Notes: a model not told the origin generated them from the sequence alone. Shown: positions 30,705 to 47,800, counted from the first letter of the stretch. The stretch is 64,000 nucleotides of DNA from Pseudomonadota bacterium (GCA_039028935.1 JBCCHD010000001.1:135181-199180); one strand, 5' to 3'. Made by a program: numbers and translations.

Positions 30705-30873
30705 GCACCGTTAAGCGCGCTCGCCCTCAGCAACAAACAGCAAACCTGTTCGCTGCTTACCGTATACTTTTATTCAAACGCACCGGAGTACATCGACATG
30801 CGCGCTGCGCAGTCGGCAGTAAAACACGAGTACTCCGTTTCGGTCTGACGCGCTCTTAGCGCGACACTGAGGC

Positions 30874-32316
30874 ATGCGCACGATGAGCTCCGACAACGAA
30901 CAGCTAGAACCGCAGGACGAAACGAGTAGCGATATGCTGCCCGTGGTGGCGTTGGTGGGTCGACCCAATGTCGGTAAGTCCACGCTGTTCAACACGCTTA
31001 CTCGATCGCGTGATGCACTGGTGGCCGACCAACCTGGACTCACCCGCGATCGGCAGTATGGCTTTGGTCGTGTGGGCACCATTCCGTACCTAGTGGTGGA
31101 TACGGGCGGTTTGTCGGGTGATACCGATGGCCTAGATGGATTGATGGCGCAACAGACGCAGCGCGCCATCGAAGAAGCGGACTATGTCCTGTTTATGGTC
31201 GATGGGCGCGATGGCCTGTCGGCTACCGATCATCAGGTGGCGCAGCTGTTGCGCCGACACAATACACCCATGCAGCTTGTGGTGAATAAATCAGAAGGCC
31301 TCGATCCCGATGTGGTCGGCGCCGAATTCTATGCACTGGGCGCCGGCGATCCGGCGTCCATTTCGTCCGCCCATGGGCACAATGTTGCGGCGTTGATGGA
31401 CGAGGTGTTAGCCACGTTTCCAATACCGTCGGAAACCGCCGAAACGCACGGCATCAAGGTGGCGATCATTGGTCGACCAAATGTGGGTAAGTCCACGCTG
31501 GTAAATCGCTTGGTGGGTGAAGAGCGTGTGGTGGCATTTGATCGGCCGGGCACCACGCGCGACAGCGTTTATGTGCCGTTTGAGCGCGATGGTACGCAGT
31601 ACACACTGATCGACACCGCGGGCGTTCGTCGGCGTTCTAAGGTCGACGATGGCATCGAGAAGTTCAGTATTGTCAAAACGCTGCAGGCAATCGACAAAGC
31701 CGATGTAGTGGTGTGCATGCTGGACGCGCGCGAAAGCGTGACCGATCAGGATGTGCGCTTGCTGGGTCTTGCTCTGCATCGTGGGCGCGCTCTCACACTC
31801 GCGATCAATAAATGGGATGGCCTCAGTCCGTATCAGCGTGACACGATACGTCGAGAGCTCGAAGTCAAACTGCCGTTTGCCACATACATCGACAGTCATT
31901 TTATCTCGGCGCTGCATGGCAGTGGCGTCACGGATGTGCTGGCCTCGGTCATCGACTGTCATACGGCTGCTACACGCGAACTGCCCACCGCCGAGCTCAC
32001 GCGGGTGCTCGAAGACTGTGTGCAGTCCCATCCACCGCCTGCGTCGCGTGGTCGACGTCCCAAGCTGCGCTATGCGCATCAGGGTGGACGCAATCCGCAG
32101 ATCATTGTCATCCACGGCAATATGACCAATCACATTGCGGACAGCTACCGACGTTTTTTGGAAAATCGCTTCCGGAAGAACTTCCGACTGCATGGTGCGC
32201 CGGTGAAGATCGAATTTAAAAGCGGTAAGAACCCGTTTGCTGGTCGGCGTAACAAGCTCACCGATCGGCAAAAAAATCGTAAAAAACGTTTACTCAAACA
32301 CGTCAAACGGAAATAG
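30874..32316 (+). CDS. der: ribosome-associated GTPase Der (EngA)
   Basis: Two G domains: GRPNVGKSTLFN and GRPNVGKSTLVN, with DTGG/DTAG and NKSE/NKWD. KH-like C-terminus. The start may instead be ATG 30934 (MLPVVALVGRPN). Confidence 0.93.
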   Translation: MRTMSSDNEQLEPQDETSSDMLPVVALVGRPNVGKSTLFNTLTRSRDALVADQPGLTRDRQYGFGRVGTIPYLVVDTGGLSGDTDGLDGLMAQQTQRAIEEADYVLFMVDGRDGLSATDHQVAQLLRRHNTPMQLVVNKSEGLDPDVVGAEFYALGAGDPASISSAHGHNVAALMDEVLATFPIPSETAETHGIKVAIIGRPNVGKSTLVNRLVGEERVVAFDRPGTTRDSVYVPFERDGTQYTLIDTAGVRRRSKVDDGIEKFSIVKTLQAIDKADVVVCMLDARESVTDQDVRLLGLALHRGRALTLAINKWDGLSPYQRDTIRRELEVKLPFATYIDSHFISALHGSGVTDVLASVIDCHTAATRELPTAELTRVLEDCVQSHPPPASRGRRPKLRYAHQGGRNPQIIVIHGNMTNHIADSYRRFLENRFRKNFRLHGAPVKIEFKSGKNPFAGRRNKLTDRQKNRKKRLLKHVKRK

Positions 32317-33530
32317 TGATGAAGCCACTTGCGACCAACCGAAAGAAGACCTCTCAGCTGGGTTACACGTTTCTTGCCGTTGTGGCGGTGTTGGTGGTCC
32401 TCGGCGCGCTCAATCATGAAAAACTCTCGCGGCTTTACGCGGTGGTGACGCTGTTTGATGAAGACAAAATCGTCAATCATTTTTCCAACATGGATAACGT
32501 AATGCTATCGGCACCGCTGGTGCGCGATGGGCCCACCGACCCGTGGCCTGAGGCACGTGCGCCCATGCCAAATACCTTTGCGTATGACGGTGAGAATTTG
32601 GACGTCGAGGCGTTTTTGACCGACACCGCAACGACGGCGCTGGTGGTGATAAGCGACGGCGCCATTGTGCATGAACAGTATCGGCTCGGCACACAGCAGC
32701 AAGATCAGCGTATTTCGTGGTCCATGGCGAAGTCGTTTTTATCGGCGGTGCTGGGCATCGCGGTGGCCGAAGGGCAAATCGAATCACTGCGCGATCCTGT
32801 CGATAAGTATGTGCCGGCGCTTGGCGATTCGGCGTATGCCGGCGTGGCACTTGAAGACGTGCTGCACATGTCGAGCGGCATTCGTTTTAATGAAGACTAT
32901 TTCGATTTCAATAGTGACATCAATAAGATGGGCCGCGTTCTGGCGTTGGGCACCTCGATGGACGACTTCGCGATCAGTATGAACGAGCGCGATCGTGATG
33001 CCGGCACGCAGTGGCACTATGTGTCCATTGATACGCATGTGCTCGCCATGGTGTTGCGTGCGGCCACCGGCACTACGCTGACCGACTATCTATCCCGCCG
33101 TCTGTGGCAACCGTTGCGCACCGACGGTGACGGCTATTATCTGACCGATGGCGAGGGCGTGGCGTTTGCGCTGGGTGGGCTCAACATGCAGACGCGAGAC
33201 TACGCGCGGTTTGGTCAGCTTTTTCTAAATAACGGCAGCTGGAACGGTGAGCAGGTCATTCCGGCCGATTGGACCGAACGGTCAACGCGCAATAGTGCAC
33301 CCGGTATGAAACGCGTTGGTCAAGGCTACGGGTATCAATGGTGGCTGCCGCCCGAGGCAAACGGCGAATTCTATGCCGGAGGTATTTACGGGCAGTACAT
33401 TTACGTGAACCGCGAGAAGGGTGTTGTGGTGGCTAAAAATTCAGCGCACCGTACGTTCAACGCGCCCGGTGTGCGGATGAAGACAATTGCGTTCTTTCGG
33501 TCGCTCGCCGCGCATTACGATACCGAATAA
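32316..33530 (+). CDS. serine hydrolase, beta-lactamase (class C / PBP4*-like) family
   Basis: N-terminal TM/signal anchor. SxxK in ISWSMAKSF. YGYQWW near the C-terminus. Confidence 0.7.
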   Translation: MMKPLATNRKKTSQLGYTFLAVVAVLVVLGALNHEKLSRLYAVVTLFDEDKIVNHFSNMDNVMLSAPLVRDGPTDPWPEARAPMPNTFAYDGENLDVEAFLTDTATTALVVISDGAIVHEQYRLGTQQQDQRISWSMAKSFLSAVLGIAVAEGQIESLRDPVDKYVPALGDSAYAGVALEDVLHMSSGIRFNEDYFDFNSDINKMGRVLALGTSMDDFAISMNERDRDAGTQWHYVSIDTHVLAMVLRAATGTTLTDYLSRRLWQPLRTDGDGYYLTDGEGVAFALGGLNMQTRDYARFGQLFLNNGSWNGEQVIPADWTERSTRNSAPGMKRVGQGYGYQWWLPPEANGEFYAGGIYGQYIYVNREKGVVVAKNSAHRTFNAPGVRMKTIAFFRSLAAHYDTE

Positions 33531-33532: not shown

Positions 33533-33985
33533 GTGCCCGATTCGCGCGGATCGGTTGAGCAGCAGACGTATTCGACGACCTGTCGATGCGAGTGTGTTCG
33601 AATCGATTTTCGCTTGCCCAAGCCTATTGGCGGCTATGAGCCCCGTCGCTGTGACTGTGCGTTCTGTACCGCCAGGCAAATCGCTTACTTGTCCGATAAA
33701 GACGGTGTGCTGATCGTGAAAAGTAGGCAGCCCATGCGGCCAGTACGGCAGGGGTCGGAGCAAGCGGTATTTTGGGCGTGTCCCGTCTGTAACGAGATTG
33801 TGGCGGTTACCCACCAAGACGGCGGCACCCTGCGGGGCGCCGCTAATGCCGCGCTTTTTGCTAACCACCACACGATGAAGGCGCCGATTACTGTATCCCC
33901 CAAATTACTGTCTCCCGAGGAAAAGCGTGATCGCTGGGTCGAGATTTGGGCAAGCGTCGAGTTCGCCACGGGGTCGGCCGAGTAG
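33533..33985 (+). CDS. small Cys-rich protein, possibly GFA/CENP-V (aldehyde-activating) fold
   Basis: Cys pattern CRCEC...CDCAFC...CPVC resembles the GFA zinc sites. GTG start. No further support. Confidence 0.35.
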   Translation: MPDSRGSVEQQTYSTTCRCECVRIDFRLPKPIGGYEPRRCDCAFCTARQIAYLSDKDGVLIVKSRQPMRPVRQGSEQAVFWACPVCNEIVAVTHQDGGTLRGAANAALFANHHTMKAPITVSPKLLSPEEKRDRWVEIWASVEFATGSAE

Positions 33986-34101
33986 CGGGTGGTCGATGAG
34001 CGTAATCGCGATGATCCAACGATGGTGCCCAACGCGTTCAATCTGCGCCAATAAACCGCCACAAACAGGACTTTCGGCCCAGCGTCTGGACGACGACTAA
34101 C

Positions 34102-34137
34102 GGTGTCAGGTCTGCTACGCAGAGCAAACCTGACACC
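34102..34137 (-). terminator. stem-loop 12 nt after the stop of the 1801-aa gene (no clear U-tract)
   Basis: 10-bp stem ggtgtcaggt / acctgacacc around a 16-nt loop. Confidence 0.4.
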
Positions 34138-34148
34138 TGTCGTGTCGC

Positions 34149-37100
34149 TTAAAGGGTGTTGCAGTTGGCGAGTGAGCTGGGTCCCGGTGCGCCGAAGATG
34201 CTGTTGACCATGACCGGGTAGTCGAGGAAGTTGACCACACCGTCGCCGTTGAAGTCATGCAACGGGTCCGTGCTTTGGAACGCTCCGCCAAACAGCGCGA
34301 CATCCAAGAAATTCACTTCGCAGTCGTTGTTCGTGTCGGCGTCGCAGCGATTGCCAAAGCCATCGCCATCGGTGTCGAGCTGCGATGGGTTTGCCACATT
34401 GATGCAGTTGTCGTTGTTGTCTGTGAGACCGTCGGCGTCGCTGTCTACGGTGTCGTTGGGCAACGCATTCAGCTCATTGAGGTAGGCGCTGATCAACTGC
34501 GCACCAGCTGGATCAATGTCGAGCGTGGCGTGTGCGATGACCGCGTCGGTCAGATTGGCCGCCGAACCATCGTGAAGATACGGCGCCGACTGCCATAAGC
34601 CGTTCAGCGTGGGAGTGTCGATCGCGGCAAGTGTGCCACCCAGGCGGCCGCCGGATGCCGCGGTGATGGTGCCGATGTCGTGGGCACCACCGGTCGGTGA
34701 GTCCGTCGTCACCGTGCCGGCATGACAGGTTGCGCACCCCTGCTGAAGGAACAACGCTCGGCCCGCAATGGCGTCGGTGCTGAACGATTCGTCCGGTGCA
34801 CGAATGGGGTTCATGGGTGTGCTGGCCAGCGAGTTGAGATACGCGGCGAGCGCATCGAGATCGGCGCTGAGTCCTGCTTTGGGATCGCCCAGCGGTTGGC
34901 TCACGCTGCCGGCGAAATAATCGGCGTCGGCCATTAGACCGCTGCCGCCGGCAAAGTCGCGAATCTGCCCTTCGAAGTCTTGTACCTCGTCGAAGTTATT
35001 GCTCCAGTGTAAACCGCCGTGGGCCATGCCACCTTTGCCGATGAGCGAGATAGTGTTACGCAGGCCTTCGCCGAACTGAGTGAAGTCCCATACGCGGCCG
35101 TCGTCGTCGCCTTCGTTATGACACGATGCACAGCTCATGTAGTCGCTCGCGGCGAGCCGGTCGTCGAGCGCATCCGTAAAGAGCTGCTTGCCGAGCAAAA
35201 CGTTTGCCGATAACGCTTCGCTATTCACCATCGTGGTTGTCTGCAACTCGGTCGCGGCAAACGACACATCTTGCGAGATGGACGACACGTCGATGACGCT
35301 GACGCTGCGGTCCATAAAATTATGCGCATAGAGTCGATTACCATCAGCGGAAAGCACCACACTTTGCGGCGCACGACCCACATCCAGCCGCAACAGTTGT
35401 CCGCCATTGGACAGATCAATGACCGCCACGTGTCGGCTGGTCTCCAGTGCCACGAATAGTTTTTCACCATAGGCACCAATGACTGCACCCGTGGCCACAC
35501 TCGAGTTGTCGTGATCGATTCGCGCGGTGAGTAGCTCGGCGCTGTTGATTAGGTTTACTTGAGACGTCACGGCGCGCACGGTGTGGTCAAAATCGAGTGT
35601 GCTGCCGTCTCGGGCGGTGCCGCCTAGAATATTGTCTTGCTTGGACGGCACATAGGCCATCATGCCGTCGGGCGCGATGACCGGTGCGTTGAGATAATTG
35701 GGAATGCCCGGTCCTTGTGTTTCTGAGGCCACGACGTTGCGATGTTGAAGCCGAATCTCGCCTTCTGGTTGAAGCGTATTGGCGTTGACGCGACGTATCA
35801 GGCCGCCGTCGGTCGCCTGCGGTGTGACGAGCGTTGTGGACTCACCGGTTAACTGTGGCGTGATGAATTGCGTCACGAGCAGTTGCGCGCCGTCAGCCGT
35901 GATCGCAAGGTGTCGAGGTCGATAGCCAAGCGGCGCCATGCCGTTGATGTTTGCGGTGGCAACGTCGATACGCAATAACTCCGCGCTTGCCTCCAGCACC
36001 ACATAGGCGCTGCCGCCGCCGGGAGCGATGACAATACCATGCGGCGCGGAGCCGCGCGGTAAAAGCACGCTGCGTGTTACGTTGCGCGTGGCCACATCGA
36101 TGATGCTAATTGAGTCGTCGGCTTTGTTACTCACCCATACCTCATTTGTGCTGTCGCTATAGGTCAGTCCCCACGGTTTTGCCCCGACGTCGATCTCGTC
36201 GATTTGCACGCCTGCCGCTGACAGCACGCCCACCGTGTCGTTGTCCGGATTGACATTCCATAGGTTGGCGTCGACCGCGTTGCCCAGCCGAATGAGCGTA
36301 GAGGAACTCACCGCACGCGGGGCGAGCGAAATATTGTCGCCAATGCCGTCGCCGTTGCTGTCACTGGATTCGCGTGGGTTACTGGCGAAGACGTCGCCAT
36401 TGTCTCCGACGCCGTCACCATCGCTGTCCGCCGATTCATTGGGATCGCTGGGGAACGCGTCGCTGTTGTCGCCCACGCCATCAAGATCACTGTCCAGCCA
36501 TTCGGTATTGTCGTTGGGGAACGCGTCGATACTGTCCGCGTAGCCATCGCCATCGGAGTCAACCGGGCCGAGTCCATCAAGGGCTTGCAGGAGCGCGAAG
36601 GCGTTGGAAAATTCGGCGTGCAGACCTTCGGCGATAAATAGCTCAAGCGACGCGCCGCCGCCATTCTCAAAAAAGATGAGTTCGATGTCATGTACGCCCA
36701 CCCCTAGGTTGACCGAACCGAAGTTGTCGACGGGCGGATGGGTGAGGTTGTCTTCTATGAGCGTTTGACCGTTCACACGCAGTCGCACACCGTCATCAGA
36801 GTTAGTACCAAACGTGTAGTCGCCGTCTTTGACAATACTGATCTGTCCGGTAACGCGTACCGCGAGGGTATCGAGGTAGGGAAATAGCACGTTGTTGCCA
36901 AAATGACCGGTGCCACCTAAGCCATCCCAATAGTCGACGGTTGCAGTCGACTGGAACTCAGCCGCCACGCCGCCGCTATTGAGCAATGCTTCGGTAATTG
37001 CCAGTGTGTTGACCGCGTCGTCCGAGTCGACAAACAGCACATTGAACGTGCCATCACCGGCGTTGCCGAGTTCACCGTTAACCGGCTGCAGTAGTTCAAA

Positions 37101-39554
37101 CGCGTCTGAAAACGCGGTGAGCGAACCAGGTGCTAAGAACAACTCGAGCGTGGCGCCGCCGCCATTCTCAAAGTACACCAGCTCAATTTCATGAATGCCG
37201 GGGTCCAAATCGATAGTCCCGAAGCGGTTCGCTGGACCATGTAGCGCATCGTCTACGATTACGTCCTGGCCGTTCACACGTAGACGTAAGCCGTCATCAG
37301 AGTTAGTGCCAAAGGTGTACGTGCCCGCCGTGTAAATACCAAAACGACCGGTCACTCGTGTCACAAACGTATTGAGATACGGAAACACATCGTCATTGGT
37401 GAAGTTGCCGGTGCCGCCCTGATTGTCGACAATATTGACTTGTGGCAATGCTTGAAACTGAGCGTTCACACCACCGCTTGCGAGCAGCGCATCGGAGTCG
37501 GCGAGCGAAGTGACCGCGCTATCCGAATCGACAAATAGAAAATTGAATGTCGGCGTGTTGTCCGCACGCGGCAGAAGATGTGCGTTGGCCCAGTCAGCAT
37601 GGTCGCAGTTGATGTTGTCACCGCCGTCATTCACGCGCAGCGACAATGTGCTCACGCCGGCAATGCCCAAGTCCACGTCGACCGCGCCGCTTTGGTAGTC
37701 AAGCACTGGACTGGTGTAGAGCGGCAAATCATCACCAAACACGCTGAATTGTACGCTGCCGCACGCGGTGTCGACCACTTCGTCATCCACACCGAGCGTT
37801 GATTTAAAGCGGCTATAGTCGCCCGCGACATCGATGTCGATTTGCGACACTGCGTGCACACCCACACCTTTTGCGTAGGTGGTACCGCGAATGCTCAGTG
37901 TTGTGCCATCGCCTGCGGCCGTCTCGCCGTTGCTCATGTCGCGTTCGGCGGGGCCCCATCCGTTAACTTCGTTTTCCCACGCGAGATCCGAGATATAGAT
38001 CTCATCACCGGTGGGCACATCGGGCGGGCGCTGTACCTGCAAAATGTGGCCGACGGAAGGCGCCCCATTGGCGCCGATCGCGAACATCCAGTAATAGCCC
38101 GGCACCACGACATTGGGATTGGGGTTAAGCGAAAGTTCATACGTGCCGGCGCCCGTTGCCGTGAAGTCGATCGGAATAAAACGCTGGTCCGTGTTGATGG
38201 CGTGCGTTGTTGCCGACAGGCGCACCATGGAAAATTTCGTGACCCCGTCGCTGGCCGAAACGTTCAATACGTCGCCGGCGCGTGCGGTGGACGCCGCCGC
38301 TGTGATTTGTGGTCGGGTCGCGTTCGAGCCGTCTGCGTTAAATAAGTACGGTGGCGAAAAAATTTGTCCGTCAAGATGATTGGCGCTACAGCCACCACAG
38401 GCGCCACCACCGGCGGCCAATACGCGACCGTCACGCAGCAGCAGACCAATCGAATGGTAGTTGCGTGGCACGGTCATGCTCGCGAGCACTTCCCATTCAT
38501 CCAGATCGGGCTTGTAGAGCTCCGCCGCAAACACACTCGCGTCATCATTAAACAGTCGACCGTCGGTGTTGCCGCCCACCACCAATACGTCGCCCGTCGG
38601 CAGCATCACCGTGTTGGAGTTGGCGCGGCCCGTGTTGATCGGTGCTGCATTCGTCACGACCGGTGCAGGTCCATTCAAGTCGACCAGATAAACATCGTTT
38701 GTCACCGCCGGGTTGGTCGTGCGGTCATAGCCGCCCACTAAGATGACTTTACCGACATCGTACGTGGTGACATTACCGAACATGCGGGTGCGTGTGCCGG
38801 TTGGCTGACCCAAATCGGTCACCCCGCCTGAACCATACGGATCAAACTCATGCCATGTGGGCGTCGGGCCCCCATGAAACACATTGCCATTTGGGCCCAC
38901 GGCCATCTGCGCCCACCATTGCATATTGGCGGCACTGTTGACGACCGGTTCGCCATTGGCGGCGTTTTGCTCGTTGAGTAAGTCGATCATGGTCGCGCCG
39001 GGTGTGAGCGTCCAGGTGTTTGAGGCGGGCGAGAACCGTTCCGACGAATCGCCGGCGGTATTGGCGAAGGTGGAGAAAATGGTGTTGTTGGGCAGCGTGA
39101 GATTTGTACCGTACCAGCGTGTGCGGTTCATTGTGGGTAAAGGTGTCCATTCGAGTGCCACCGGATCGAACGCGCTCGTGCGTACGTCATTGGGGTTACC
39201 GCCGGAGGCGACAAATCGGCCATCTTCCAACGTCGACACGCCTGCGCAAAACATGTCGTGGAAATCACTGTCGACATTGGTGAACGTTTCGGTGGTGGGG
39301 TCAAACAACGACGAGTGGGTAAACTCCCGGTTGGCCGGAAACGCGTTCACTTCGGTCGAGGAATAGGACACGATGCGACCGTCGGGCAGGGTGCCCGCGG
39401 TAATCGCGATATGCGGCCAGGCGATCGGGCTGCCCCAGGCACCATCGGTCGCATTGCGTAGTTGGGTTTCCTTGTCGCCATCATCAGCGAACGCGGTCAT
39501 GGACAGAACGCACGCCGCAACGACGGCGCTGGCTAGCACACTTGGCTTGATCAT
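34149..39554 (-). CDS. 1801-aa secreted mosaic protein. Domain order: copper radical oxidase (galactose oxidase/GlxA-like), NPCBM, 2x PA14, TSP3 repeats, beta-propeller, di-haem cytochrome c peroxidase-like module, TSP3/dockerin-like tail
   Basis: Single uninterrupted ORF. Signal peptide MIKPSVLASAVVAACVLSMTAFA. Domain evidence is listed in the sub-features below. Confidence 0.9.
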   Translation of the reverse strand: MIKPSVLASAVVAACVLSMTAFADDGDKETQLRNATDGAWGSPIAWPHIAITAGTLPDGRIVSYSSTEVNAFPANREFTHSSLFDPTTETFTNVDSDFHDMFCAGVSTLEDGRFVASGGNPNDVRTSAFDPVALEWTPLPTMNRTRWYGTNLTLPNNTIFSTFANTAGDSSERFSPASNTWTLTPGATMIDLLNEQNAANGEPVVNSAANMQWWAQMAVGPNGNVFHGGPTPTWHEFDPYGSGGVTDLGQPTGTRTRMFGNVTTYDVGKVILVGGYDRTTNPAVTNDVYLVDLNGPAPVVTNAAPINTGRANSNTVMLPTGDVLVVGGNTDGRLFNDDASVFAAELYKPDLDEWEVLASMTVPRNYHSIGLLLRDGRVLAAGGGACGGCSANHLDGQIFSPPYLFNADGSNATRPQITAAASTARAGDVLNVSASDGVTKFSMVRLSATTHAINTDQRFIPIDFTATGAGTYELSLNPNPNVVVPGYYWMFAIGANGAPSVGHILQVQRPPDVPTGDEIYISDLAWENEVNGWGPAERDMSNGETAAGDGTTLSIRGTTYAKGVGVHAVSQIDIDVAGDYSRFKSTLGVDDEVVDTACGSVQFSVFGDDLPLYTSPVLDYQSGAVDVDLGIAGVSTLSLRVNDGGDNINCDHADWANAHLLPRADNTPTFNFLFVDSDSAVTSLADSDALLASGGVNAQFQALPQVNIVDNQGGTGNFTNDDVFPYLNTFVTRVTGRFGIYTAGTYTFGTNSDDGLRLRVNGQDVIVDDALHGPANRFGTIDLDPGIHEIELVYFENGGGATLELFLAPGSLTAFSDAFELLQPVNGELGNAGDGTFNVLFVDSDDAVNTLAITEALLNSGGVAAEFQSTATVDYWDGLGGTGHFGNNVLFPYLDTLAVRVTGQISIVKDGDYTFGTNSDDGVRLRVNGQTLIEDNLTHPPVDNFGSVNLGVGVHDIELIFFENGGGASLELFIAEGLHAEFSNAFALLQALDGLGPVDSDGDGYADSIDAFPNDNTEWLDSDLDGVGDNSDAFPSDPNESADSDGDGVGDNGDVFASNPRESSDSNGDGIGDNISLAPRAVSSSTLIRLGNAVDANLWNVNPDNDTVGVLSAAGVQIDEIDVGAKPWGLTYSDSTNEVWVSNKADDSISIIDVATRNVTRSVLLPRGSAPHGIVIAPGGGSAYVVLEASAELLRIDVATANINGMAPLGYRPRHLAITADGAQLLVTQFITPQLTGESTTLVTPQATDGGLIRRVNANTLQPEGEIRLQHRNVVASETQGPGIPNYLNAPVIAPDGMMAYVPSKQDNILGGTARDGSTLDFDHTVRAVTSQVNLINSAELLTARIDHDNSSVATGAVIGAYGEKLFVALETSRHVAVIDLSNGGQLLRLDVGRAPQSVVLSADGNRLYAHNFMDRSVSVIDVSSISQDVSFAATELQTTTMVNSEALSANVLLGKQLFTDALDDRLAASDYMSCASCHNEGDDDGRVWDFTQFGEGLRNTISLIGKGGMAHGGLHWSNNFDEVQDFEGQIRDFAGGSGLMADADYFAGSVSQPLGDPKAGLSADLDALAAYLNSLASTPMNPIRAPDESFSTDAIAGRALFLQQGCATCHAGTVTTDSPTGGAHDIGTITAASGGRLGGTLAAIDTPTLNGLWQSAPYLHDGSAANLTDAVIAHATLDIDPAGAQLISAYLNELNALPNDTVDSDADGLTDNNDNCINVANPSQLDTDGDGFGNRCDADTNNDCEVNFLDVALFGGAFQSTDPLHDFNGDGVVNFLDYPVMVNSIFGAPGPSSLANCNTL
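34200..34457 (-). other. C-terminal Cys-containing TSP3 repeats plus dockerin/EF-hand-like tail (aa ~1700-1785)
   Basis: DSDADGLTDNNDNCINVANPSQLDTDGDGFGNRCDADTNNDC, then DFNGDGVVNFLD. Confidence 0.55.
34515..35207 (-). other. domain: di-haem cytochrome c peroxidase / MauG-family module (aa ~1450-1680)
   Basis: LLGKQLFTD...SCASCH (nt 35118-35132), GCATCH (nt 34722-34736) and IDTPTLNGLWQSAPYLHDGSAANLTDAV. Confidence 0.75.
35265..36302 (-). other. domain: YVTN/YncE-like beta-propeller repeats (aa ~1085-1430)
   Basis: Recurrent blades: PWGLTYSDSTNEVWVSNKADDSISIIDVAT, PHGIVIAPGGGSAYVVLEASAELLRIDVAT, PRHLAITADGAQLLV and PQSVVLSADGNRLYAHNFMDRSVSVIDVS. Confidence 0.65.
36333..36563 (-). repeat. thrombospondin type 3-like calcium-binding repeats (aa ~998-1074)
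   Basis: DSDGDGYADSIDAFPNDNTEWLDSDLDGVGDNSDAFPSDPNESADSDGDGVGDNGDVFASNPRESSDSNGDGIGDN. Confidence 0.75.
36579..37550 (-). repeat. tandem duplication of a PA14 domain (aa ~669-824 and ~836-992), period about 167 aa
   Basis: Copy 1: TFNFLFVDSDSAV...YTFGTNSDDGLRLRVNGQDV...IELVYFENGGGATLELF. Copy 2: TFNVLFVDSDDAV...YTFGTNSDDGVRLRVNGQTL...IELIFFENGGGASLELF. Confidence 0.8.
37569..38006 (-). other. domain: NPCBM (NEW2) putative carbohydrate-binding module, aa ~517-662
   Basis: IYISDLAWENEVNGWGPAERDMSNGE...IRGTTYAKGVGVHAVSQIDIDV...GVDDEV...CDHADWANAHL. Confidence 0.75.
38031..39452 (-). other. domain: galactose oxidase / glyoxal oxidase-like kelch propeller plus C-terminal Ig-like (DUF1929) domain, aa ~35-508
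   Basis: DMFCAGVS (Cys103), TRWYGTN (Tyr148), PRNYHSIGLLLRDGRVLAAGGGACGGC (Tyr366/His367) and RLSATTHAINTDQRFIP (His451). These correspond to galactose oxidase Cys228, Tyr272, Tyr495/His496 and His581. Confidence 0.8.
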
Positions 39555-39614
39555 TTTTTAACGCCCGTTTTGTCGCAGAGGCGACATCGCCCGCTGCGGT
39601 GATTCTTTTTATTA

Positions 39615-39626
39615 CTGATTAATCAG
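39615..39626. promoter_or_regulatory. perfect 12-bp palindrome CTGATTAATCAG abutting the -12 element
   Basis: Read directly from the sequence. It overlaps the predicted -12 element and transcription start zone of the sigma-54 candidate. Confidence 0.35.
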
Positions 39627-39641
39627 CATGTTTCGTGCCAA
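39625..39641 (-). promoter_or_regulatory. candidate sigma-54 (RpoN) promoter for the 1801-aa gene
   Basis: The minus strand reads TTGGCACGAAACATGCT versus consensus TGGCACG-N4-TTGCW. GG and GC are at the exact canonical spacing, with one mismatch (A for T). It lies about 70-85 nt upstream of the ATG at 39554. Confidence 0.5.
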
Positions 39642-40106
39642 CGCGTGCCATCTCAAGGTAATCCATGTGCTTAAGGAGTGCGACCGCTACTCTTTTGAGT
39701 CGAGATGTAAAGTCGCTCGACGCAAAGTAGTCACGAGTCAGACACTTACGTTCGATGGCCGCTTGGATTACGTCTAATCGATGCAGTGGACAGGTGGCGG
39801 ATATGGAACAGTCTCGGCGCGACACGGGGATGAAGTCCAAGGGGTCACGTGCCGGCTTTCTGCGTTCGAGTGTCAGGCCTCAGGCTTCAGGCTTGCTGTT
39901 TCGGATTATCGGTGCGCATTGCACGGATTCGGTCGTTTGCGTTCGACGTCAAAAGGCCGCTCGATTGTGGTTTGAGTCGAGACGGTTTTTGTCCCTGGGT
40001 ATGTTGGTGTGATCGATGTCGGTCTCTAGCGGGCGAGCCGCGGGAAAGGCGTTGTGCGACAACTGCTTGCGCGGTGGCGATATACCGATCGTTAAGCCGG
40101 GCGAAT

Positions 40107-42569
40107 TTAGCGTGCCGATGTGTCGTCGCTGAGCACATTGAGAAACGCAACGAGTTCTTTGATCGCGCGCTCGTCGAGCGACTCGATGGGCACGAGTTCG
40201 TGCCAGGTTGTGCGTTTGTCGGCGGGATCCGAGTAATACACCAGCACATCGGTCAGTGTGTCGAACCGGCCGTCGTGCATATACGGTGCAGTGGTGCGCA
40301 ATCCACGCAGGCCTGGCGTTCGAAAGGCGCCGTCGAGTAAGCGCGGTACTTCCGCGGCACGCGCGTCGTCGAGATGTCGACAGACGGCGTCCGCCTCGCC
40401 GTATTCACTCGCGCAATTGAATGGGTCGTTCAGCAAGGCCTCGATACCCGCGAGTCGCCCGGTATCGTGCCGCCCGTTTGCGTTGGTGCCGGTACCGATA
40501 TTATGAAACTGCCCGTTCGTGAATCGTGGACCGTTGTGACAGCTCACACACTGCGTGTCGGCCGAAATGAAGCGTTTGAGTCCGGCGATTTCGGTGTGGG
40601 TTAACAGATTGCTGTGCTGGGGCGCGTCGCTGAGTAAGTCGTCCACCCATACATCGAAGCGCGTAGGAGTGAACACAAATCGTCGTTGATGGGCGGCCAG
40701 CGCTTTGCCCAGACGCACAAACGTGCGATTCAGGCGGGATTCTTGAGATGGGCTCAACGCGTTGTCGTTGAGGGCGCGGACAAACGTCTCCGGCAGGGGT
40801 TCGAATGCGTTTGCATACAGTGTCGCCAGCGCCGAATCGTTGGCCACCAAACGCACCGCATCGTAGCGGTTACCCCCCATCTCGCCCGGCGCTTCGATGG
40901 GTTCAAGCGCTTGCGACCAAAGGCTGTCTTTGCGCCCATCCCAATAATAGTGCTGTCGCCAAGCAACCCCCACCAGCCCCGGCGTGTTTCGCGTTAATGG
41001 CGCGAGCCCCGTTGCGGTTGCTTGGCCATCAGCCAGTCCAAGAGGTGACTGATGACACGTGGCGCACGCGACCGTTTGGGTGGCGCTCAATCGCGCGTCG
41101 TGAAACAGCGCTTGGCCGAGCGCCGCGGCGGCGGCACTGTTAAACACGTCGTTGCCCGGATCGTTGGGTGCCTCGCCTAACGACGTGAGCGACAGTGTTG
41201 CTAACAGTGTTTTTTCGGACGCAGTAAACCTGGTTGACGTTGGCGTCGCTGACGGTTGAGCCTGAGGATTGCTGTAAGCGGGCGAACTCAGCGACTCGAG
41301 AAAGGCCACAAGGTCCGTGCGCTGGGCGGCCGACAAATTAAGGGTCACCAGCTCGTTGTCGTCAGGTGGCGCAGAGTAGTGGGCGAGCACCGCGTCGAGT
41401 GACTCCGCCCGACCATGATGAAAGTAGGGTGCGGTGTGCGCGACGTTTCGCAATGTAGGTGTTTTGAACGCGCCGGCCATGTCGCCGTGCTGGTCGCGTG
41501 AGAGAAAGCGCAGTGCCGAACATTCATTCGCATCGGCGTCGCTATGAGGGCCAAGGCAGTTGAACTGGTCAAGCAAGACCGCCTGAACGCCAAACAAACG
41601 ACCAAAGTCGAGCACCTCACCACGCGCCGACGCCGCGTGTGCGGTGCCTTCAATGGCACCCGTGCCGATGTTGTGAAAGTCACCGTTTGTGAGGAGCGGT
41701 CCGCTGTGGCACTGCAGGCAACGCGATGCCTCAAAATCAATAAAGAGCTTGGCACCGCGCCGCGCCGCCTCGCTGAGTAACGGTGCGGCCGCGTCTTCGC
41801 CGTCTTGAATGAGCGTATCCACATAGCGGTCAAACGGCGCGGGTCGTGGGGTCAACGTGCGCTCATAGGCTGCGAGGGCTTTGCCCACATTGGCATAGGC
41901 TGAATTGACCGCTTGGCGTGTGCGTGCGGGCATGCGGAACCAGGCGTTCTGCCCGGCCTGATCGGCAAATTCGCCAGCGTGCGGGGGTAGCCTTCCCGCG
42001 CGCAGAACGGGTGGCAACGGACCAAAAACCGCCGCGTAGGTGTCGATATAGTCCGGATCTTGCGCAATGAGGTTCACAGCTGCGGTGCGACTTCCGCCCA
42101 TCTCATCGGGTGCTTCGATTGGAATGAGCGCCTGCGACCAGAGCGAGTCGCGTCGGCCGTCCCAATAAAACCAATGCTGCCACGCGCCGCCGATCAACGT
42201 TGGTGTATTGCGCGACAAGGTTCTAATGCCCTGGCCGGTCGGTAAACCGTCGGTAAAATACTTTTGCGGTTGATGACAGCTGGCACACGACTGCGTACCG
42301 TCGCCGCTGAGGCGCGTATCGAAAAAAAGTGCTTCACCCAATCGAACCGCGTCGGGGTGGTTGGCGACGCGATTTGATGGTGCTTTCGGTGTCGGCAAAC
42401 TCGCCAGACTCAGCGAGCGCAAGATGGACACTTCCTCTTCTGTCCAAAAGCGTGGTGTCGGCGAACAACTCACGAGCAACGCGAGCCAACCCACGCTGAG
42501 ACTGATGCGCAGGGTCATTCTGATCGGCAGATTAATGCGGCTCACGTCGAAACGCCCAGTCGATAGCAC
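40107..42569 (-). CDS. lipoprotein made of two tandem di-haem cytochrome c peroxidase/MauG-family modules (four CXXCH)
   Basis: Lipobox WLALLVSC. CASCH at 42273-42287, CLQCH at 41706-41720, CATCH at 41052-41066, CVSCH at 40536-40550. Each half repeats the pattern LF.D.RLS...C..CH, NTP.L, YWDGR.DSLWSQA, IEAP.EMGG, C..CH.GP..TNG.FHNIGTG, F.TP.LR, APY.H.GR. The start may be ATG 42518 (MTLRISLSVGW). Confidence 0.85.
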   Translation of the reverse strand: MLSTGRFDVSRINLPIRMTLRISLSVGWLALLVSCSPTPRFWTEEEVSILRSLSLASLPTPKAPSNRVANHPDAVRLGEALFFDTRLSGDGTQSCASCHQPQKYFTDGLPTGQGIRTLSRNTPTLIGGAWQHWFYWDGRRDSLWSQALIPIEAPDEMGGSRTAAVNLIAQDPDYIDTYAAVFGPLPPVLRAGRLPPHAGEFADQAGQNAWFRMPARTRQAVNSAYANVGKALAAYERTLTPRPAPFDRYVDTLIQDGEDAAAPLLSEAARRGAKLFIDFEASRCLQCHSGPLLTNGDFHNIGTGAIEGTAHAASARGEVLDFGRLFGVQAVLLDQFNCLGPHSDADANECSALRFLSRDQHGDMAGAFKTPTLRNVAHTAPYFHHGRAESLDAVLAHYSAPPDDNELVTLNLSAAQRTDLVAFLESLSSPAYSNPQAQPSATPTSTRFTASEKTLLATLSLTSLGEAPNDPGNDVFNSAAAAALGQALFHDARLSATQTVACATCHQSPLGLADGQATATGLAPLTRNTPGLVGVAWRQHYYWDGRKDSLWSQALEPIEAPGEMGGNRYDAVRLVANDSALATLYANAFEPLPETFVRALNDNALSPSQESRLNRTFVRLGKALAAHQRRFVFTPTRFDVWVDDLLSDAPQHSNLLTHTEIAGLKRFISADTQCVSCHNGPRFTNGQFHNIGTGTNANGRHDTGRLAGIEALLNDPFNCASEYGEADAVCRHLDDARAAEVPRLLDGAFRTPGLRGLRTTAPYMHDGRFDTLTDVLVYYSDPADKRTTWHELVPIESLDERAIKELVAFLNVLSDDTSAR

Positions 42570-42577
42570 GGCGCACC

Positions 42578-43048
42578 TCAGAAAGTCAGATCGATCTCAA
42601 AACGCACATCATCGGTGCCCAGTGCTGAACCGATGCGGTAGCTGAGGACCCAGGCACCGGCCATGTTGAAGCGCACGCCCTCAATTCGATAGCGGCCGTC
42701 GCCAAGATGGTCGGTGATTTGAGGCTGTGTGGGGAGTCCATGGCCGTGACCGGGCATACCGCCACCCATTTGTATACGCGCCGGGAACACCGCGTCGCCG
42801 TCGGTATCCGTCAGTGTTAACACCCACTCGTGATAGTCGCCGATGAGCACATCGCCATCGCGCGGTTCAATGCGCACGTGATAGAGGCCGTTACCGGAGG
42901 CCTGTTGCCAACCCATTGCGGCGGGCTCGGATGGCGCATCGGCCCGTTCGCACGCGGTGGTGACAAACAGCACCAACAGCACTGGCAGCAACCGGAACGC
43001 ACGTCGGCGAGCGGACGGTGAATGGGCGGCATGTTGAAGTTCGATCAT
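42578..43048 (-). CDS. small lipoprotein with YtkA/FixH-like Ig-fold domain and a His/Met/Gly-rich loop; twin-arginine-like signal
   Basis: ORF 42578-43399 trimmed to MIELQHAAHSPSARRRAFRLLPVLLVLFVTTAC (RRxF plus lipobox). YHEWVLTLTDTDGDAVFPARIQMGGGMPGHGHGLPTQP...GDGRYRIEGVRFNMAGAWVLSYRI matches the YtkA-like pattern. The upstream part of the track ORF is AT-rich and looks non-coding. Confidence 0.6.
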   Translation of the reverse strand: MIELQHAAHSPSARRRAFRLLPVLLVLFVTTACERADAPSEPAAMGWQQASGNGLYHVRIEPRDGDVLIGDYHEWVLTLTDTDGDAVFPARIQMGGGMPGHGHGLPTQPQITDHLGDGRYRIEGVRFNMAGAWVLSYRIGSALGTDDVRFEIDLTF

Positions 43049-43420
43049 CACGCGCAAAATCGTGCCGAAGGAAGCCAAAGCGGTCAACCGATCACGCCAC
43101 AGTTGACGCGTTCTGTTGGCGGAGTAGATAGAAAAAGGCCATTTTTGCGACGGCGTTACGGTGTCCGATGAGCATATCGGTGAATGTATTTGACTAAGGA
43201 TTATTCTTAGATTGCAAACAATGATCGCGCCAATCTCCCTACCGTACGGGCGGATCAATTGCCAATACTCGTTAACTATCTGAATTATAGAGGATAAAAT
43301 ATCACTATTCGGATTTAGCACCGACTCGAATTGCGTGGCGGTTGTGCATCGCAACAGGACATTAATCCGGGTTTTGCGATAATGCCCGTCCGGTAACATT
43401 TATCAGAAGGAACGACATTA

Positions 43421-44017
43421 ATGAGTCTGTTGAAATCCATCATCGAAGCGCAAAGCGGCAAAGTGTTGCAGCAGGTCGCTGGCAACTTCGGCCTTAACTC
43501 AGAGCAGGCAACCAAAGCCATTGGCAGCTTGTTGCCCGCCCTTACACAGAACATGAAAAAGAACGCGCAGAGTGACAACGGCCTCGAGGGTCTGTTGGGC
43601 GCGCTCAAAAAGGGGAATCACTCACGCTACCTGGAAGACCCATCTTTGTTTGGACAAGGCGGCAGCCTCAACGAATCCACCATTCGCGACGGGAATGGTA
43701 TTTTGGGTCACATCTTAGGATCGAAGGAAGTCAGCCGTCAGGTCGCTGCGGATGCGGCACAAAAGACCGGCATTGACGCATCAATCTTGAAAAAACTGTT
43801 GCCGATGGTCGCTACCATGGCCATGGGCGGGCTGAGTAAACAGGCACAATCCAAAGACTCCGGTTTGGGCGGGCTGCTCGGCGGCTTGCTGTCAGGTGGC
43901 GTCGCGCAGCAGCGTCAATCGAGCGGCATCGACGGTATCTTGGGTAAGCTGCTGGATGCCGACAACGATGGTTCGATGCTCGATGACATGATGGGCATGG
44001 CGAAAAAGTTCTTCTGA
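43421..44017 (+). CDS. DUF937-like protein
   Basis: MSLLKSIIEAQSGKVLQQVAGNFGLNSEQATKAIGSLLPALTQNMKKN, Gly/Leu-rich LGGLLGGLLSGG, and C-terminal DADNDGSMLDDMMGMAKKFF. Confidence 0.45.
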   Translation: MSLLKSIIEAQSGKVLQQVAGNFGLNSEQATKAIGSLLPALTQNMKKNAQSDNGLEGLLGALKKGNHSRYLEDPSLFGQGGSLNESTIRDGNGILGHILGSKEVSRQVAADAAQKTGIDASILKKLLPMVATMAMGGLSKQAQSKDSGLGGLLGGLLSGGVAQQRQSSGIDGILGKLLDADNDGSMLDDMMGMAKKFF

Positions 44018-46293: not shown

Positions 46294-46659
46294 ATGAAAG
46301 CCGATCCCTATGCCTACGCGCTACACACCGTCCAGCTCTTTACGCCCGTCGACGATGAGGTGGTGCCGCTGACCGCGGTTATTCGATATCCGTTTGAGAA
46401 CTTAGACACCCATTGGCTGTGTGCGGCGAGCATCAGCGGTCTGTTTCATCGCAAGGCGGATTTGGAACGCGACACGCCCAGCGCCGCACTCAAGGCCGCA
46501 CGCGCTTTTTTGATTGACGAACTTAGTGACTACGAAGCGCGTGGCGGGATGCTGCTCAACGTCAAACAAGAGCCGGTAACGGATCTACGCGCGCTCTTTC
46601 CGTCGCAGATGTTTGAGTCGGCCGAGGAGGCGCTGTCGGGGTTAACGCGGTTCGAGTAA
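46294..46659 (+). CDS. hypothetical protein (121 aa)
   Basis: ATG 5 nt after the metX stop. No recognisable motif and not MetW-like. Its 3' end overlaps the convergent M23 gene by 18 nt. Confidence 0.4.
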   Translation: MKADPYAYALHTVQLFTPVDDEVVPLTAVIRYPFENLDTHWLCAASISGLFHRKADLERDTPSAALKAARAFLIDELSDYEARGGMLLNVKQEPVTDLRALFPSQMFESAEEALSGLTRFE

Positions 46660-47751
46660 TAACAGCGGATCGACGAGCACGCCGTTTAGCAACACACCAA
46701 GATGCAGGTGGGGTCCTGTGACGCGTCCGGTTTCGCCAACCGTACCGAGGGTCTGGCCGATTTCCAATGTATCGCCGACCTCCACACCAATCTCGTTTAA
46801 GTGGCAATACAGGGTGACAAAACCGTGGCCGTGATCGACAAACACCGTGTTGCCATTAAAGAAATAGTTGCCTGTATCGATTACCGTGCCGCGAGCTGGC
46901 GCGACAATCGGCGTGCCGGTCGGTGCGGCGATATCGAGTCCACTGTGCGGATTGCGCGGTTGACCATTGTAAATTCGGCGTAAGCCAAAGGTGCTGCTGA
47001 TGCGTCCTTCAAGCGGCCACGCCATCACAAGATCGGGGAGCGCGTTTCGATTGAACGTGGTTTTGGCTCGCTGAATACGTAGCCAGTCCTGCTCGATACG
47101 TTTTTGATCGCTGGGGTTGGGGTTCACTTTGCGCGTGTTTTTGATGGTCAGCGATTGGGTTTCATACTCGGTGCTTTGCACATCAAACACCTGTCGCGTG
47201 TCGGCCTTGCCGTGTACTTTCACCAATACGGTGTGCTCGCCGATGTCCGCGTTGAGCGGAATGCCGACGACCGCGTTCCAATAATCGCCTTTGCGCGTGA
47301 CATAAACCGGCCGGTCGCCAAAATACACATCCGGTCGAGGTTCCGCCGCGCGGTCGAGGGTCAGCAGTGCGATGCCGCCCGGCACGGCGTGATGCGCCGG
47401 CACCTGGCGCTCTGGTTTGGCAACGTTAGGTGGTGCCATCGGCTGGCGCATCGCTTGGTCGGTGTTTGCGGGCTGCGAGCGAGGCCGTTGTAGGCGGCTG
47501 CGTTTGGCATCGCGTTGCGAGCGTATGCGCGGTGCTGAGTGTGCGCTGGCGGGCGGGACGGCCGTCTGAGTGGCGGCCGGTGCGGTCGGTGGCGCTGTCG
47601 ACGCGGACGCGTGAGGTGAGGTCTTGTGTGTGGACGGGCGGGTGGTTTCAGATGGGTCGCTGGTCGATGTCGTCATGCACGACGCAGCGACCAGACACAG
47701 CACCAGCGTCATACCAATACGCGATGCGTCGATGTTCGATAAACGGTTCAT
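46642..47751 (-). CDS. M23 family metallopeptidase lipoprotein
   Basis: ORF 46642-48219 trimmed to MNRLSNIDASRIGMTLVLCLVAASC (lipobox). The untrimmed ORF would overlap the upstream gene. C-terminal HSGLDIAAPTGTPIVAPARG...VFVDHGHGFVTLYCHL...GPHLHLGV. Confidence 0.85.
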   Translation of the reverse strand: MNRLSNIDASRIGMTLVLCLVAASCMTTSTSDPSETTRPSTHKTSPHASASTAPPTAPAATQTAVPPASAHSAPRIRSQRDAKRSRLQRPRSQPANTDQAMRQPMAPPNVAKPERQVPAHHAVPGGIALLTLDRAAEPRPDVYFGDRPVYVTRKGDYWNAVVGIPLNADIGEHTVLVKVHGKADTRQVFDVQSTEYETQSLTIKNTRKVNPNPSDQKRIEQDWLRIQRAKTTFNRNALPDLVMAWPLEGRISSTFGLRRIYNGQPRNPHSGLDIAAPTGTPIVAPARGTVIDTGNYFFNGNTVFVDHGHGFVTLYCHLNEIGVEVGDTLEIGQTLGTVGETGRVTGPHLHLGVLLNGVLVDPLLLLEPR

Positions 47752-47800
47752 GAAATCAGCCTGACTGTGTGATGAGAAGTCAATCATCCAAGTTGCGTCG

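Follow-up and report, generated by a model that had tools for sequence, protein, structure and literature searches.

The 64,000-nucleotide stretch of DNA analysed here (the window; Pseudomonadota bacterium, GCA_039028935.1, JBCCHD010000001.1:135181-199180) contains three co-oriented minus-strand genes for exported proteins: a mosaic protein with a copper radical oxidase (CRO) domain, a tandem dihaem enzyme and a small YtkA-like lipoprotein. Genes of these three families are linked in other genomes as well; this linkage is established at the genomic level and underlies the interpretation given below. The three genes and the spacer between two of them are as follows.

34149-39554, minus strand: gene for a 1801-aa exported mosaic protein composed of a signal peptide, a CRO domain, an NPCBM domain, two PA14 domains, Asp-rich repeats, a YVTN propeller, a dihaem unit and an Asp-rich/dockerin-like tail
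39555-40106, minus strand: 552-nt spacer between the dihaem gene and the mosaic gene
40107-42569, minus strand: gene for a tandem MauG-like dihaem enzyme, 820 aa from a GTG start
42578-43048, minus strand: gene for a YtkA-like ('FixH family') lipoprotein, 156 aa

Genes of the Cluster

All three open reading frames (ORFs) of the initial annotation are found, and so are the export signals that it ascribed to their products: the mosaic protein has a Sec-type signal peptide (MIKPSVLASAVVAACVLSMTAFA, cleaved between AFA and DD), the dihaem enzyme a lipobox (LLVS-C35), and the YtkA-like protein a lipobox-like site (VTTA-C). Its count of six c-type haem sites and one copper-radical site likewise agrees with the motifs, as two CxxCH motifs are present in the mosaic protein and four in the tandem enzyme. 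In GenBank, the same three genes lie on a 280.6-kb contig of a metagenome-assembled genome (MAG) labelled 'Pseudomonadota bacterium'; their products are an 'NPCBM/NEW2 domain-containing protein' of 1801 aa (mosaic), a 'cytochrome c peroxidase' of 812 aa (dihaem enzyme) and a 'FixH family protein' of 156 aa (YtkA-like protein).

The 8-nt gap first reported between the YtkA-like and dihaem genes holds for the GTG start at 42569, which has GAGG 6 nt upstream, but not for the GenBank start (a gap of ~32 nt) or an ATG at 42518 (59 nt). The cluster end at 43420 had been set too far out, as the last 372 nt are intergenic or belong to a divergent promoter. A mechanical ORF call for the small gene (42578-43399, minus strand) begins 117 codons before the supported start, which is at 43048, and this extension overlaps the divergent promoter region of a DUF937 gene at 43421. 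The long form to 43399 is rejected, as the 223 homologues of the YtkA-like protein, mostly of 130-176 aa, give the extension no support.

Conservation of the Gene Neighbourhood

For a scan from the oxidase side, one genome per GTDB species was searched via CRO motifs. Close relatives of the mosaic gene turned up at 78 loci, and every ORF there was scanned with hidden Markov models (HMMs) of the families built from the matches of this analysis. The 78 loci represent at least seven phylum-level lineages, as labelled. A strong dihaem gene is present at 32 of them, accompanied at 27 by a YtkA-like gene; when only loci with 5 kb or more of flank on each side are counted, the corresponding numbers are 19 and 17 of 36. 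Each of the 39 dihaem matches is 1.8 kb or less from the mosaic gene, and no dihaem match was found in 616 kb of flank beyond 3 kb (63% of the flank scanned). Adjacency of the mosaic gene and the pair of accessory genes is found in Gamma- and Betaproteobacteria, Myxococcota/'Deltaproteobacteria', Spirochaetota and Planctomycetota (as labelled), and the pair may be located upstream and co-oriented, as in the window, or be divergent or downstream. This varying order and orientation argues against mere inheritance of one operon.

For the reciprocal scan, metagenome contigs were searched with an alignment of YtkA-dihaem fusion proteins, and 80 loci were obtained. A CRO mosaic gene is present at 26 of these, and a form with a truncated C-terminal unit at three more; of the 24 loci with 3 kb or more of sequence to each side of the pair, 17 have the mosaic gene, or 13 of 20 once five near-duplicates are collapsed. 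Conservation of the gene neighbourhood, which the initial annotation had proposed as a check on its cluster, is thus positive from the oxidase side and from the pair side.

The two accessory proteins are tightly associated with each other. In every tandem (~800 aa) homologue with readable context, the YtkA gene is immediately upstream, and in 68 of the 120 best dihaem homologues a domain homologous to the small protein of the window (E down to 5e-38) forms the N-terminal part of the same polypeptide. Such fusion and adjacency, taken as a Rosetta stone, indicate that the small protein and the dihaem enzyme are one functional unit. At one locus (L072, 2-5323), a single stop-free frame covers a mosaic C-terminus with a transmembrane-like anchor, a lipobox, a dihaem module and a C-terminal YtkA domain, the order being reversed in that the YtkA domain follows the dihaem module; this frame could be a true fusion, a lost stop or an assembly error.

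Two kinds of loci are informative about what the pair accompanies. STL-MYXA1, Fred_18, MFD09206 and SOY_65 have several mosaic paralogues and a pair beside just one of them, which fits a trans-acting helper. At locus L104 (6976-11539), a haem-less CRO protein of 828 aa (several ricin-type domains, CRO and E-set) is followed by a 552-aa YtkA-dihaem fusion protein, suggesting that the pair goes with the oxidase domain itself. The flanking genes at L104 encode a polysaccharide deacetylase-like protein and a GFO/IDH/MocA oxidoreductase.

Two cultured hosts are included. In Marinobacter sp. LN3S78 (GCA_045449715.1; L165, JBJJLA010000017.1 145347-169992), the gene order is mosaic, YtkA and dihaem; in Enterovibrio norvegicus (GCA_900537165.1), a YtkA-dihaem fusion gene precedes the mosaic gene. 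A further mosaic protein (P0209) belongs to Thalassotalea euphylliae. The Marinobacter cluster is located amid genes for GT4, GT2, UDPGT, a Wzx-like flippase, MBOAT and GDSL proteins and a further PA14/TSP3 protein. A general association with exopolysaccharide loci was considered and rejected, as homologues of the L165 genes are present within 10 kb in a minority of loci.

These data bear directly on the possibility that the three genes are chance neighbours with no functional link. The cluster is inside a ~18-kb variable segment between der and xseA, flanked by the conserved gammaproteobacterial housekeeping blocks hisS-yfgM-bamB-der and xseA-guaB-guaA (27380-33530 and 50296-55042), and the mosaic gene seems to have its own promoter (see below), as chance assembly would allow. 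The G+C content of the segment shows no clear deviation. Reciprocal, multi-phylum and orientation-independent adjacency, together with the fusions, contradicts a chance origin, which is scarcely credible.

Two further groups of loci deserve mention. At L004 (12379-18773), downstream of YtkA and tandem dihaem genes, CRO, propeller and dihaem sequences are broken up into numerous short ORFs that differ in frame, reflecting either a pseudogene or assembly indel errors. In two Verrucomicrobiaceae MAGs (L069, 1475-3256; L070, 9107-10900), a weakly related dihaem gene (70-87 bits) precedes the mosaic gene, and no YtkA-like gene is present at these loci.

The Mosaic Oxidase

Pfam matches of the mosaic protein include Glyoxal_oxid_N/Kelch and the GO-like E-set, NPCBM, two PA14 domains and CCP_MauG. 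Asp-rich thrombospondin-type-3-like repeats are also present between the PA14 modules and the propeller. The parts are arranged as follows.

38022-39461, minus strand: CRO domain, Kelch propeller plus E-set, aa 32-511 (galactose oxidase in the Protein Data Bank (PDB), 9g8h, 3e-89)
36630-38003, minus strand: carbohydrate-binding modules (CBMs), NPCBM at aa 518-660 and two PA14 at ~aa 672-975 (Pfam NPCBM 150.7 bits; PA14 78.8 bits in two stretches)
35217-36296, minus strand: seven-bladed YVTN beta-propeller, aa 1087-1446 (PDB 1l0q, 2e-25)
34482-35216, minus strand: dihaem unit of the cytochrome c peroxidase (CCP) fold, aa 1447-1691 (haem motifs at 35118-35132 and 34722-34736)
34152-34457, minus strand: C-terminal Asp-rich (TSP3-type) and dockerin/EF-hand-like repeats (NCBIfam MtsC-type repeat matches at aa 1702-1771)

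The CRO fold is supported by a GO-like_E_set match of 72.2 bits (cut-off 25) and by Kelch motifs; the Glyoxal_oxid_N match, at 31.4 bits, is below its cut-off of 37.5 bits. The putative cofactor residues are invariant in 23 mosaic proteins: C103 (HDMFC), W147-Y148 (RWYG), Y366-H367 (RNYHS) and H451 (TTHAINTDQR). The motifs of C103, Y148, Y366, H367 and H451 align with those of galactose oxidase, so that the copper ligands and the cross-linking Cys, in the established residue numbering of galactose oxidase, have counterparts. Copper binding, a Tyr-Cys radical and H2O2-releasing oxidation are predicted for the mosaic protein on this basis.

The oxidase had been described as GlxA-like. Galactose oxidases are the better matches at aa 37-507 (9g8h, 3e-89; 1gof, 4e-69; versus 6e-32 for GlxA, 4unm), and the score on the GlxA equivalog model NF052501 is 158.5 bits against a cut-off of 800, indicating that the domain is galactose-oxidase-like instead. 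One trait, the Trp directly before the cross-link Tyr, is GlxA-like.

The middle CBM segment varies among mosaic homologues and may consist of PA14, NPCBM, F5/8-C, ricin, malectin or Ig-like domains. As these variable modules are mostly carbohydrate-binding, several of them galactose-binding, the substrate might be galactose-containing glycans. The C-terminus varies as well: homologues often end in a PEP-CTERM/MYXO-CTERM-like anchor (PF07589 in homologue P0150) instead of the dockerin-like tail.

The seven-bladed YVTN propeller between the CBMs and the haems was left unlisted in the initial annotation. At E<=1e-30, the propeller and the dihaem region, searched together as a 617-aa unit, match 1350 clusters defined at 50% identity. 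All of the top 150 clusters span the whole unit, and among the 137 of those 150 that were newly retrieved, 107 have a CRO domain N-terminal to it. In an AlphaFold2 (AF2) model of the propeller-dihaem unit, the propeller is confident and the haem loops are poor, so that Foldseek comparison is informative for the propeller only; its best matches are an archaeal YVTN propeller (1l0q, 1e-19) and the beta subunit of hydrazine synthase (5c2v_B, 6e-19, TM 0.76). In the alignment, an invariant His1675 occupies the position of the Met ligand of CCP, and the second haem is therefore predicted to be bis-His-ligated, like that of the hydrazine synthase gamma subunit.

The predicted bis-His haem resembles an electron-transfer haem, which raises the possibility that the system is a dehydrogenase or electron conduit. 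The copper-radical site would then be re-oxidized via the fused dihaem unit rather than by O2, and the four-haem lipoprotein would relay electrons to an external acceptor or into the respiratory chain, in the manner of quinohaemoprotein alcohol dehydrogenases. Six haems are present altogether, and a pyrroloquinoline quinone (PQQ)-dependent dehydrogenase with a C-terminal cytochrome c domain (quinohaemoprotein type) is encoded ~4 kb upstream of the cluster, both of which are in line with such a conduit. To our knowledge, all known CROs use O2, which speaks against it. Moreover, the accessory enzyme retains the peroxide-activating CCP/MauG scaffold, the haem-less CRO of L104 still has the pair, and no cytochrome partner is conserved in the neighbourhoods. 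On balance, an electron conduit appears very unlikely.

The YtkA-like Lipoprotein

The product of the small gene had been described as a YtkA/FixH-like lipoprotein with a His/Met-rich loop, and each element of that description is borne out. It matches the Pfam family YtkA (PF13115) with 33.6 bits (cut-off 25.9), the predicted lipidated residue is Cys33, 'AC' being the consensus among homologues, and the loop is invariant. Its position is given below.

42722-42763, minus strand: invariant loop G96-G-M98-P-x-H101-G-H103-G-L-P...P109, a predicted copper site together with M129 and W133 (42650-42664)

In 51 stand-alone homologues, the invariant residues are W75, G96, M98, H101, G102, H103, G104, P106, P109, M129, G131 and W133, and the Met/His loop is also invariant in 30 YtkA-dihaem fusion proteins. 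The AF2 model is an all-beta sandwich with a mean confidence score (pLDDT) of 87.9. Among PDB structures, its fold is matched best by CrdA, a copper resistance protein of H. pylori solved in the apo and the Ag-bound state (E 7e-7, TM 0.77, root-mean-square deviation 2.5 A). A profile-to-sequence alignment, weak alone (E 0.18), places MMPEMPGMPAM of CrdA on GGMPxHGHGLP, and SMNGTW on NMAGAW. In B. subtilis, genetic evidence ties YtkA-family domains, those of CtaK and of the YcnJ C-terminus, to assembly of the CuA site (PMC13344008). Copper handling by the YtkA-like protein is thus well motivated, and the label 'metallochaperone-like' given to the cluster at the outset is strengthened by the invariant Met/His loop and the CrdA-like predicted fold.

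The Tandem Dihaem Enzyme

The tandem protein consists of two CCP_MauG modules with four CxxCH motifs, at 42273-42287, 41706-41720, 41052-41066 and 40536-40550.

41271-42455, minus strand: dihaem module 1, 559 bits on the family HMM, of the type that is fused or adjacent to the YtkA-like domain elsewhere
40116-41249, minus strand: dihaem module 2, a diverged paralogue, 432 bits on the family HMM, with the same Tyr column (YYS)

In some genomes, modules of the second type may be encoded by a separate second dihaem gene; the nearest neighbours of module 2, marginally, are the second modules or genes of L001, L115, L116, L040, L017 and L101 (distances 0.55-0.59). At L005 (15663-16964) and L040 (~16350), a second dihaem gene that is not YtkA-linked is located on the other side of the mosaic gene, and at L005 its start overlaps the mosaic end by 11 nt. 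The two dihaem gene types of such loci appear to be fused in tandem in the window.

The best NCBIfam matches are MauG (TIGR03791; 297.9 bits summed over the two modules, cut-off 443.85) and MbnH (TIGR04039; 265.1 bits, cut-off 362.85), so that the protein scores below both cut-offs, and its partner is YtkA-like (PF13115), not MbnP. In a broader sense, the enzyme is of the MauG type: each module has two CxxCH motifs, the bridging Trp of WDGRRDSLW is conserved in the family, and Tyr replaces Met. Specifically, Y381 of module 1 aligns column-for-column with the haem ligand Met258 of the N. europaea CCP (1iqc), and the Tyr in this column is shared by at least 90% of 111 family members and by all of 30 fusion proteins. 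Tyr ligation of the second haem is predicted for the tandem modules. A CcpA-type His/Met haem is found nowhere in the cluster, with Tyr in both tandem modules and His1675 in the mosaic unit. Of the four-haem tandem peroxidase described initially, the four haem motifs stand, but the assignment to the CcpA type does not, since Tyr at the Met position of CCP is a MauG-type signature and not that of an H2O2 scavenger.

This point is relevant to a protective role, in which the pair would be a periplasmic defence against peroxide and copper stress, kept near the oxidase for its H2O2 and its copper need and not acting on the oxidase. CCP-fold enzymes commonly detoxify H2O2, and the equivalents of the distal-pocket Gln and Glu of CCP (WsQAL.P.Ea..Emg) are conserved in the dihaem family alignment. 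CrdA, the best fold match of the small protein, is a copper-resistance determinant, and both proteins of the pair would be periplasmic and membrane-tethered, while the mosaic protein looks secreted or surface-bound. However, the Met of H2O2-scavenging bacterial CCPs is replaced by Tyr, and enzymes of the MauG type perform poorly as peroxidases (PMC6405878). Nor would one expect a generic defence gene to lie within 1.8 kb of the oxidase gene in 32 species and never at 3-10 kb, or a single pair to be present for several mosaic paralogues. A purely protective role thus seems improbable.

The other possibility raised by the pair is a relationship like that of MbnP and MbnH, in which the MauG-type enzyme would oxidize an invariant Trp (W75 or W133) beside the Met/His loop of the YtkA-like protein and thereby create a modified copper site. 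The pair would then be a copper-acquisition module, with the oxidase as one of its recipients. In nearly all contexts, the YtkA-like and dihaem proteins form one polypeptide or are encoded side by side, MbnH is the second-best NCBIfam match and one of the closest solved relatives of the tandem protein (6e1c), two invariant Trp residues flank the metal loop, and the pair also occurs without CROs, e.g., with DUF4331. Nevertheless, there is no relationship between the small protein and MbnP, and the dihaem enzyme does not reach the MbnH cut-off; fusion of an enzyme and its substrate in one polypeptide would be unusual; and the tight linkage to CROs is not explained unless Trp oxidation is combined with copper delivery. 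We therefore regard this arrangement as unlikely.

Transcription and Surroundings of the Cluster

The YtkA-like and dihaem genes are probably co-transcribed, given the gap of 8-59 nt and the GAGG before the GTG start. The mosaic gene probably has its own sigma-54-like promoter, for which the candidate is located ~70 nt upstream of the mosaic start.

39624-39640, minus strand: candidate sigma-54 promoter TGGCACGAAACATGCTG (-24 GG / -12 GC), an exact pattern match with a background of 0.0026 per 700 nt

The spacer is partly alignable with that of a 78%-identical relative (L007), in which the homologous place holds the same block (TGGCATGAATCCTGCTG), and the blocks GACTTTACA and CATGGATTA upstream of it are conserved as well. 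When the motif was sought upstream of 99 mosaic genes, L007 had it and the other 98 did not, suggesting that it is lineage-specific and not a feature of the system. No gene for an enhancer-binding protein was seen among the window ORFs scanned with Pfam. A consensus scan of 33900-43500 gave promoter and terminator matches at chance level and no minus-strand terminator-like site in the 552-nt spacer. The mosaic gene may be regulated separately from the pair. The spacer also contains a 12-nt exact direct repeat (TTTGAGTCGAGA, plus strand) at 39694-39705 and 39971-39982, 277 nt apart, which could be a regulator site or a chance occurrence.

In the surrounding DNA, no match to Sco, ECuC (PCuAC-like) or DyP peroxidase was found in the cluster or its flanks with Pfam and NCBIfam. 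There are no mau genes in the window and no cslA-like gene adjoining the mosaic gene, and an Rfam search over the whole window yielded two tRNAs and nothing else. The ORF of the PQQ-dependent dehydrogenase (47801-50248, minus strand) overlaps that of an M23 peptidase (46642-48219, minus strand) by ~420 nt, so that one of the two starts must be further downstream than listed.

Proposed Function

The cluster probably represents a conserved extracytoplasmic CRO system with dedicated copper-loading and haem-activating accessory proteins, a reading to which we give a somewhat better than even chance. A secreted or cell-surface enzyme of the galactose oxidase type would be aimed at carbohydrate by its variable glycan-binding modules, here NPCBM and PA14. 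The fused propeller/dihaem unit might handle H2O2, electron transfer or both, i.e., the by-product or the redox state of the oxidase. The membrane-tethered protein of the YtkA/CrdA fold would bind copper via its Met/His loop and load the apo-oxidase in the periplasm. The MauG-type enzyme, in tandem form here, would react with H2O2 to give a strong haem oxidant, which would form the Tyr-Cys cofactor or re-oxidize it to the active Cu(II)-tyrosyl radical, consuming peroxide in the process. Action during periplasmic maturation seems the more plausible, because both helpers are lipoproteins and the mosaic proteins have surface- or secretion-type tails. H2O2 production, peroxidase action, copper transfer, the direction of the interactions and the glycan substrate are what we infer from these features.

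There are precedents for both accessory steps. CROs form the Tyr-Cys cofactor with copper and O2 and drift to an inactive one-electron-reduced state. Their activation requires a one-electron oxidation, for which peroxidases commonly serve (PMC11611005; PMC12951238). Maturation of GlxA in Streptomyces depends on a Sco chaperone and the DtpA peroxidase (PMC4736821).

Several observations weigh against the proposed system. About half of the mosaic loci with long flanks have no pair nearby, and distant YtkA-dihaem fusion genes (~40% identity) adjoin DUF4331 genes (L153, 7418-9577; L157, 7607-9613 and 13779-15398), which means that CROs are not the only setting of the pair. The cofactor of galactose oxidase can arise autocatalytically, and a maturase is thus not strictly required. 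The mosaic protein already has a dihaem unit of its own, which makes it less obvious what extra haem enzymes would contribute, and this unit is without the canonical 'PxEMG' distal segment of CCP in the alignment, which makes its peroxidase activity uncertain. Co-transcription of all three genes is doubtful because of the 552-nt spacer with its sigma-54-like element. The distant fusion gene at L153 is also flanked by a gene for a NosD-like beta-helix protein; DUF4331 and NosD-like neighbours may be alternative clients of the pair.

A bolder version of the proposed CRO system can be put forward tentatively and with the odds against it. The YtkA-like protein and the MauG-type enzyme would constitute an unrecognized maturation machine dedicated to CROs in at least four phyla, acting by remote post-translational oxidation, with an oxidant of the bis-Fe(IV) type, of the Tyr-Cys or (as in MbnP/MbnH) of a carrier Trp, while the fused unit would recycle H2O2, giving a self-activating galactose-type oxidase that does not release peroxide.

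Significance

A full-text literature search, including papers on the BthA sequence-similarity network and on CROs, found no description of a CRO-dihaem fusion or of a YtkA-dihaem pair. The logic of oxidase, chaperone and peroxidase is already known from Streptomyces and fungi, and the system is therefore not categorically new; what is found here is an undescribed, widespread and non-homologous realization of this logic with covalent fusion. The initial annotation had called the cluster an independently assembled solution, which is apt insofar as its parts are unrelated to Sco, PCuAC and DyP, but the cluster is not a one-off assembly, being one instance of a widespread conserved system.

CROs are widely used biocatalysts that have to be activated by adding a peroxidase or a chemical oxidant, and the H2O2 that they produce damages them. 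The family could reveal how copper loading, maturation and lasting activity of such enzymes are achieved in cells. It would also provide a testable client for two orphan groups, namely the large uncharacterized part of the CCP_MauG superfamily and the Gram-negative 'FixH family'/YtkA-like proteins. Marine and soil metagenomes contain the system in abundance. Given also its link to glycan-binding modules, it may matter for the oxidation of galactose-containing polysaccharides or the cross-linking of cell-surface glycans. Direct tests are feasible in two cultured hosts, Marinobacter sp. LN3S78 and Enterovibrio norvegicus.

Comparison with Known Systems

The oxidase domain itself resembles Fusarium galactose 6-oxidase (AA5_2) in its Kelch and E-set domains, the residues of the Cys-Tyr cross-link, the Tyr/His/His ligands and the presence of a galactose-type CBM. 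Unlike the Fusarium enzyme, it does not conserve the segment of the stacking Trp290, has a Trp directly before the cross-link Tyr, and is part of a bacterial 1801-aa protein with haem modules.

The propeller-dihaem unit of the mosaic protein is reminiscent of the hydrazine synthase beta and gamma subunits, in which a seven-bladed propeller is likewise combined with a CCP-fold dihaem protein; the predicted bis-His second haem and a weak similarity to the beta-gamma fusion add to this likeness. The score on NF052342 is 60.8 against 1250 bits, so that the resemblance is at fold level only, and, unlike hydrazine synthase, the unit has no anammox context and is fused to a copper oxidase.

The tandem enzyme shares with MauG/preMADH and MbnH/MbnP the CCP_MauG fold, two CxxCH motifs per module, the bridging Trp, a Tyr at the sixth-ligand position of the second haem and a partner encoded next door. 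It differs from MauG and MbnH in scoring below their cut-offs, in the absence of a mau or mbn operon and in its partners, which are a YtkA-like protein and a CRO. Its modules, of ~400 aa, contain an insertion, and tandem duplication has given four haems.

Like B. subtilis YtkA/CtaK and H. pylori CrdA, the lipoprotein would be a small membrane-tethered beta-sandwich, and the metal loop of CrdA is in the same place. Unlike in CtaK and CrdA, the loop GGMPxHGHGLP combines a Met with two His instead of being Met-only, and the protein is often fused to a dihaem enzyme. The proposed client also differs from that of CtaK, being a CRO and not the CuA site of a cytochrome oxidase.

Pairs of an alcohol oxidase (AA5_2) and a tandem haem peroxidase gene in Colletotrichum and Magnaporthe (PMC11611005; PMC12951238) also join a CRO to a haem enzyme, there a peroxidase by which it is activated; in the bacterial system, the pairing shows as conserved adjacency and as a fusion. 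The fungal pairs are eukaryotic, employ a b-haem peroxidase of the class II type and have no copper chaperone, whereas c-type dihaem proteins are used here, one in cis and one or two in trans.

A functional parallel, which the initial annotation had drawn, is the GlxA/Sco/ECuC/DtpA system of Streptomyces lividans (PMC4736821). The tight reciprocal co-occurrence of the three families supports the idea of one functional cluster analogous to that system, and the parts are indeed unrelated; the oxidase itself is galactose-oxidase-like rather than GlxA-like. In both systems, an exported CRO is accompanied by a copper chaperone and a haem enzyme, although the partner roles here are those suggested by sequence and predicted fold. 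The oxidase would act on a cell-surface glycan in both, and the Marinobacter LN3S78 cluster lies in a polysaccharide-synthesis locus, as glxA adjoins cslA. Neither partner is homologous: a YtkA/CrdA-fold protein stands in for Sco and the PCuAC-like ECuC, and a c-type dihaem MauG-like enzyme for DyP. In addition, the oxidase described here carries its own propeller-dihaem unit and CBMs and operates in a Gram-negative setting.

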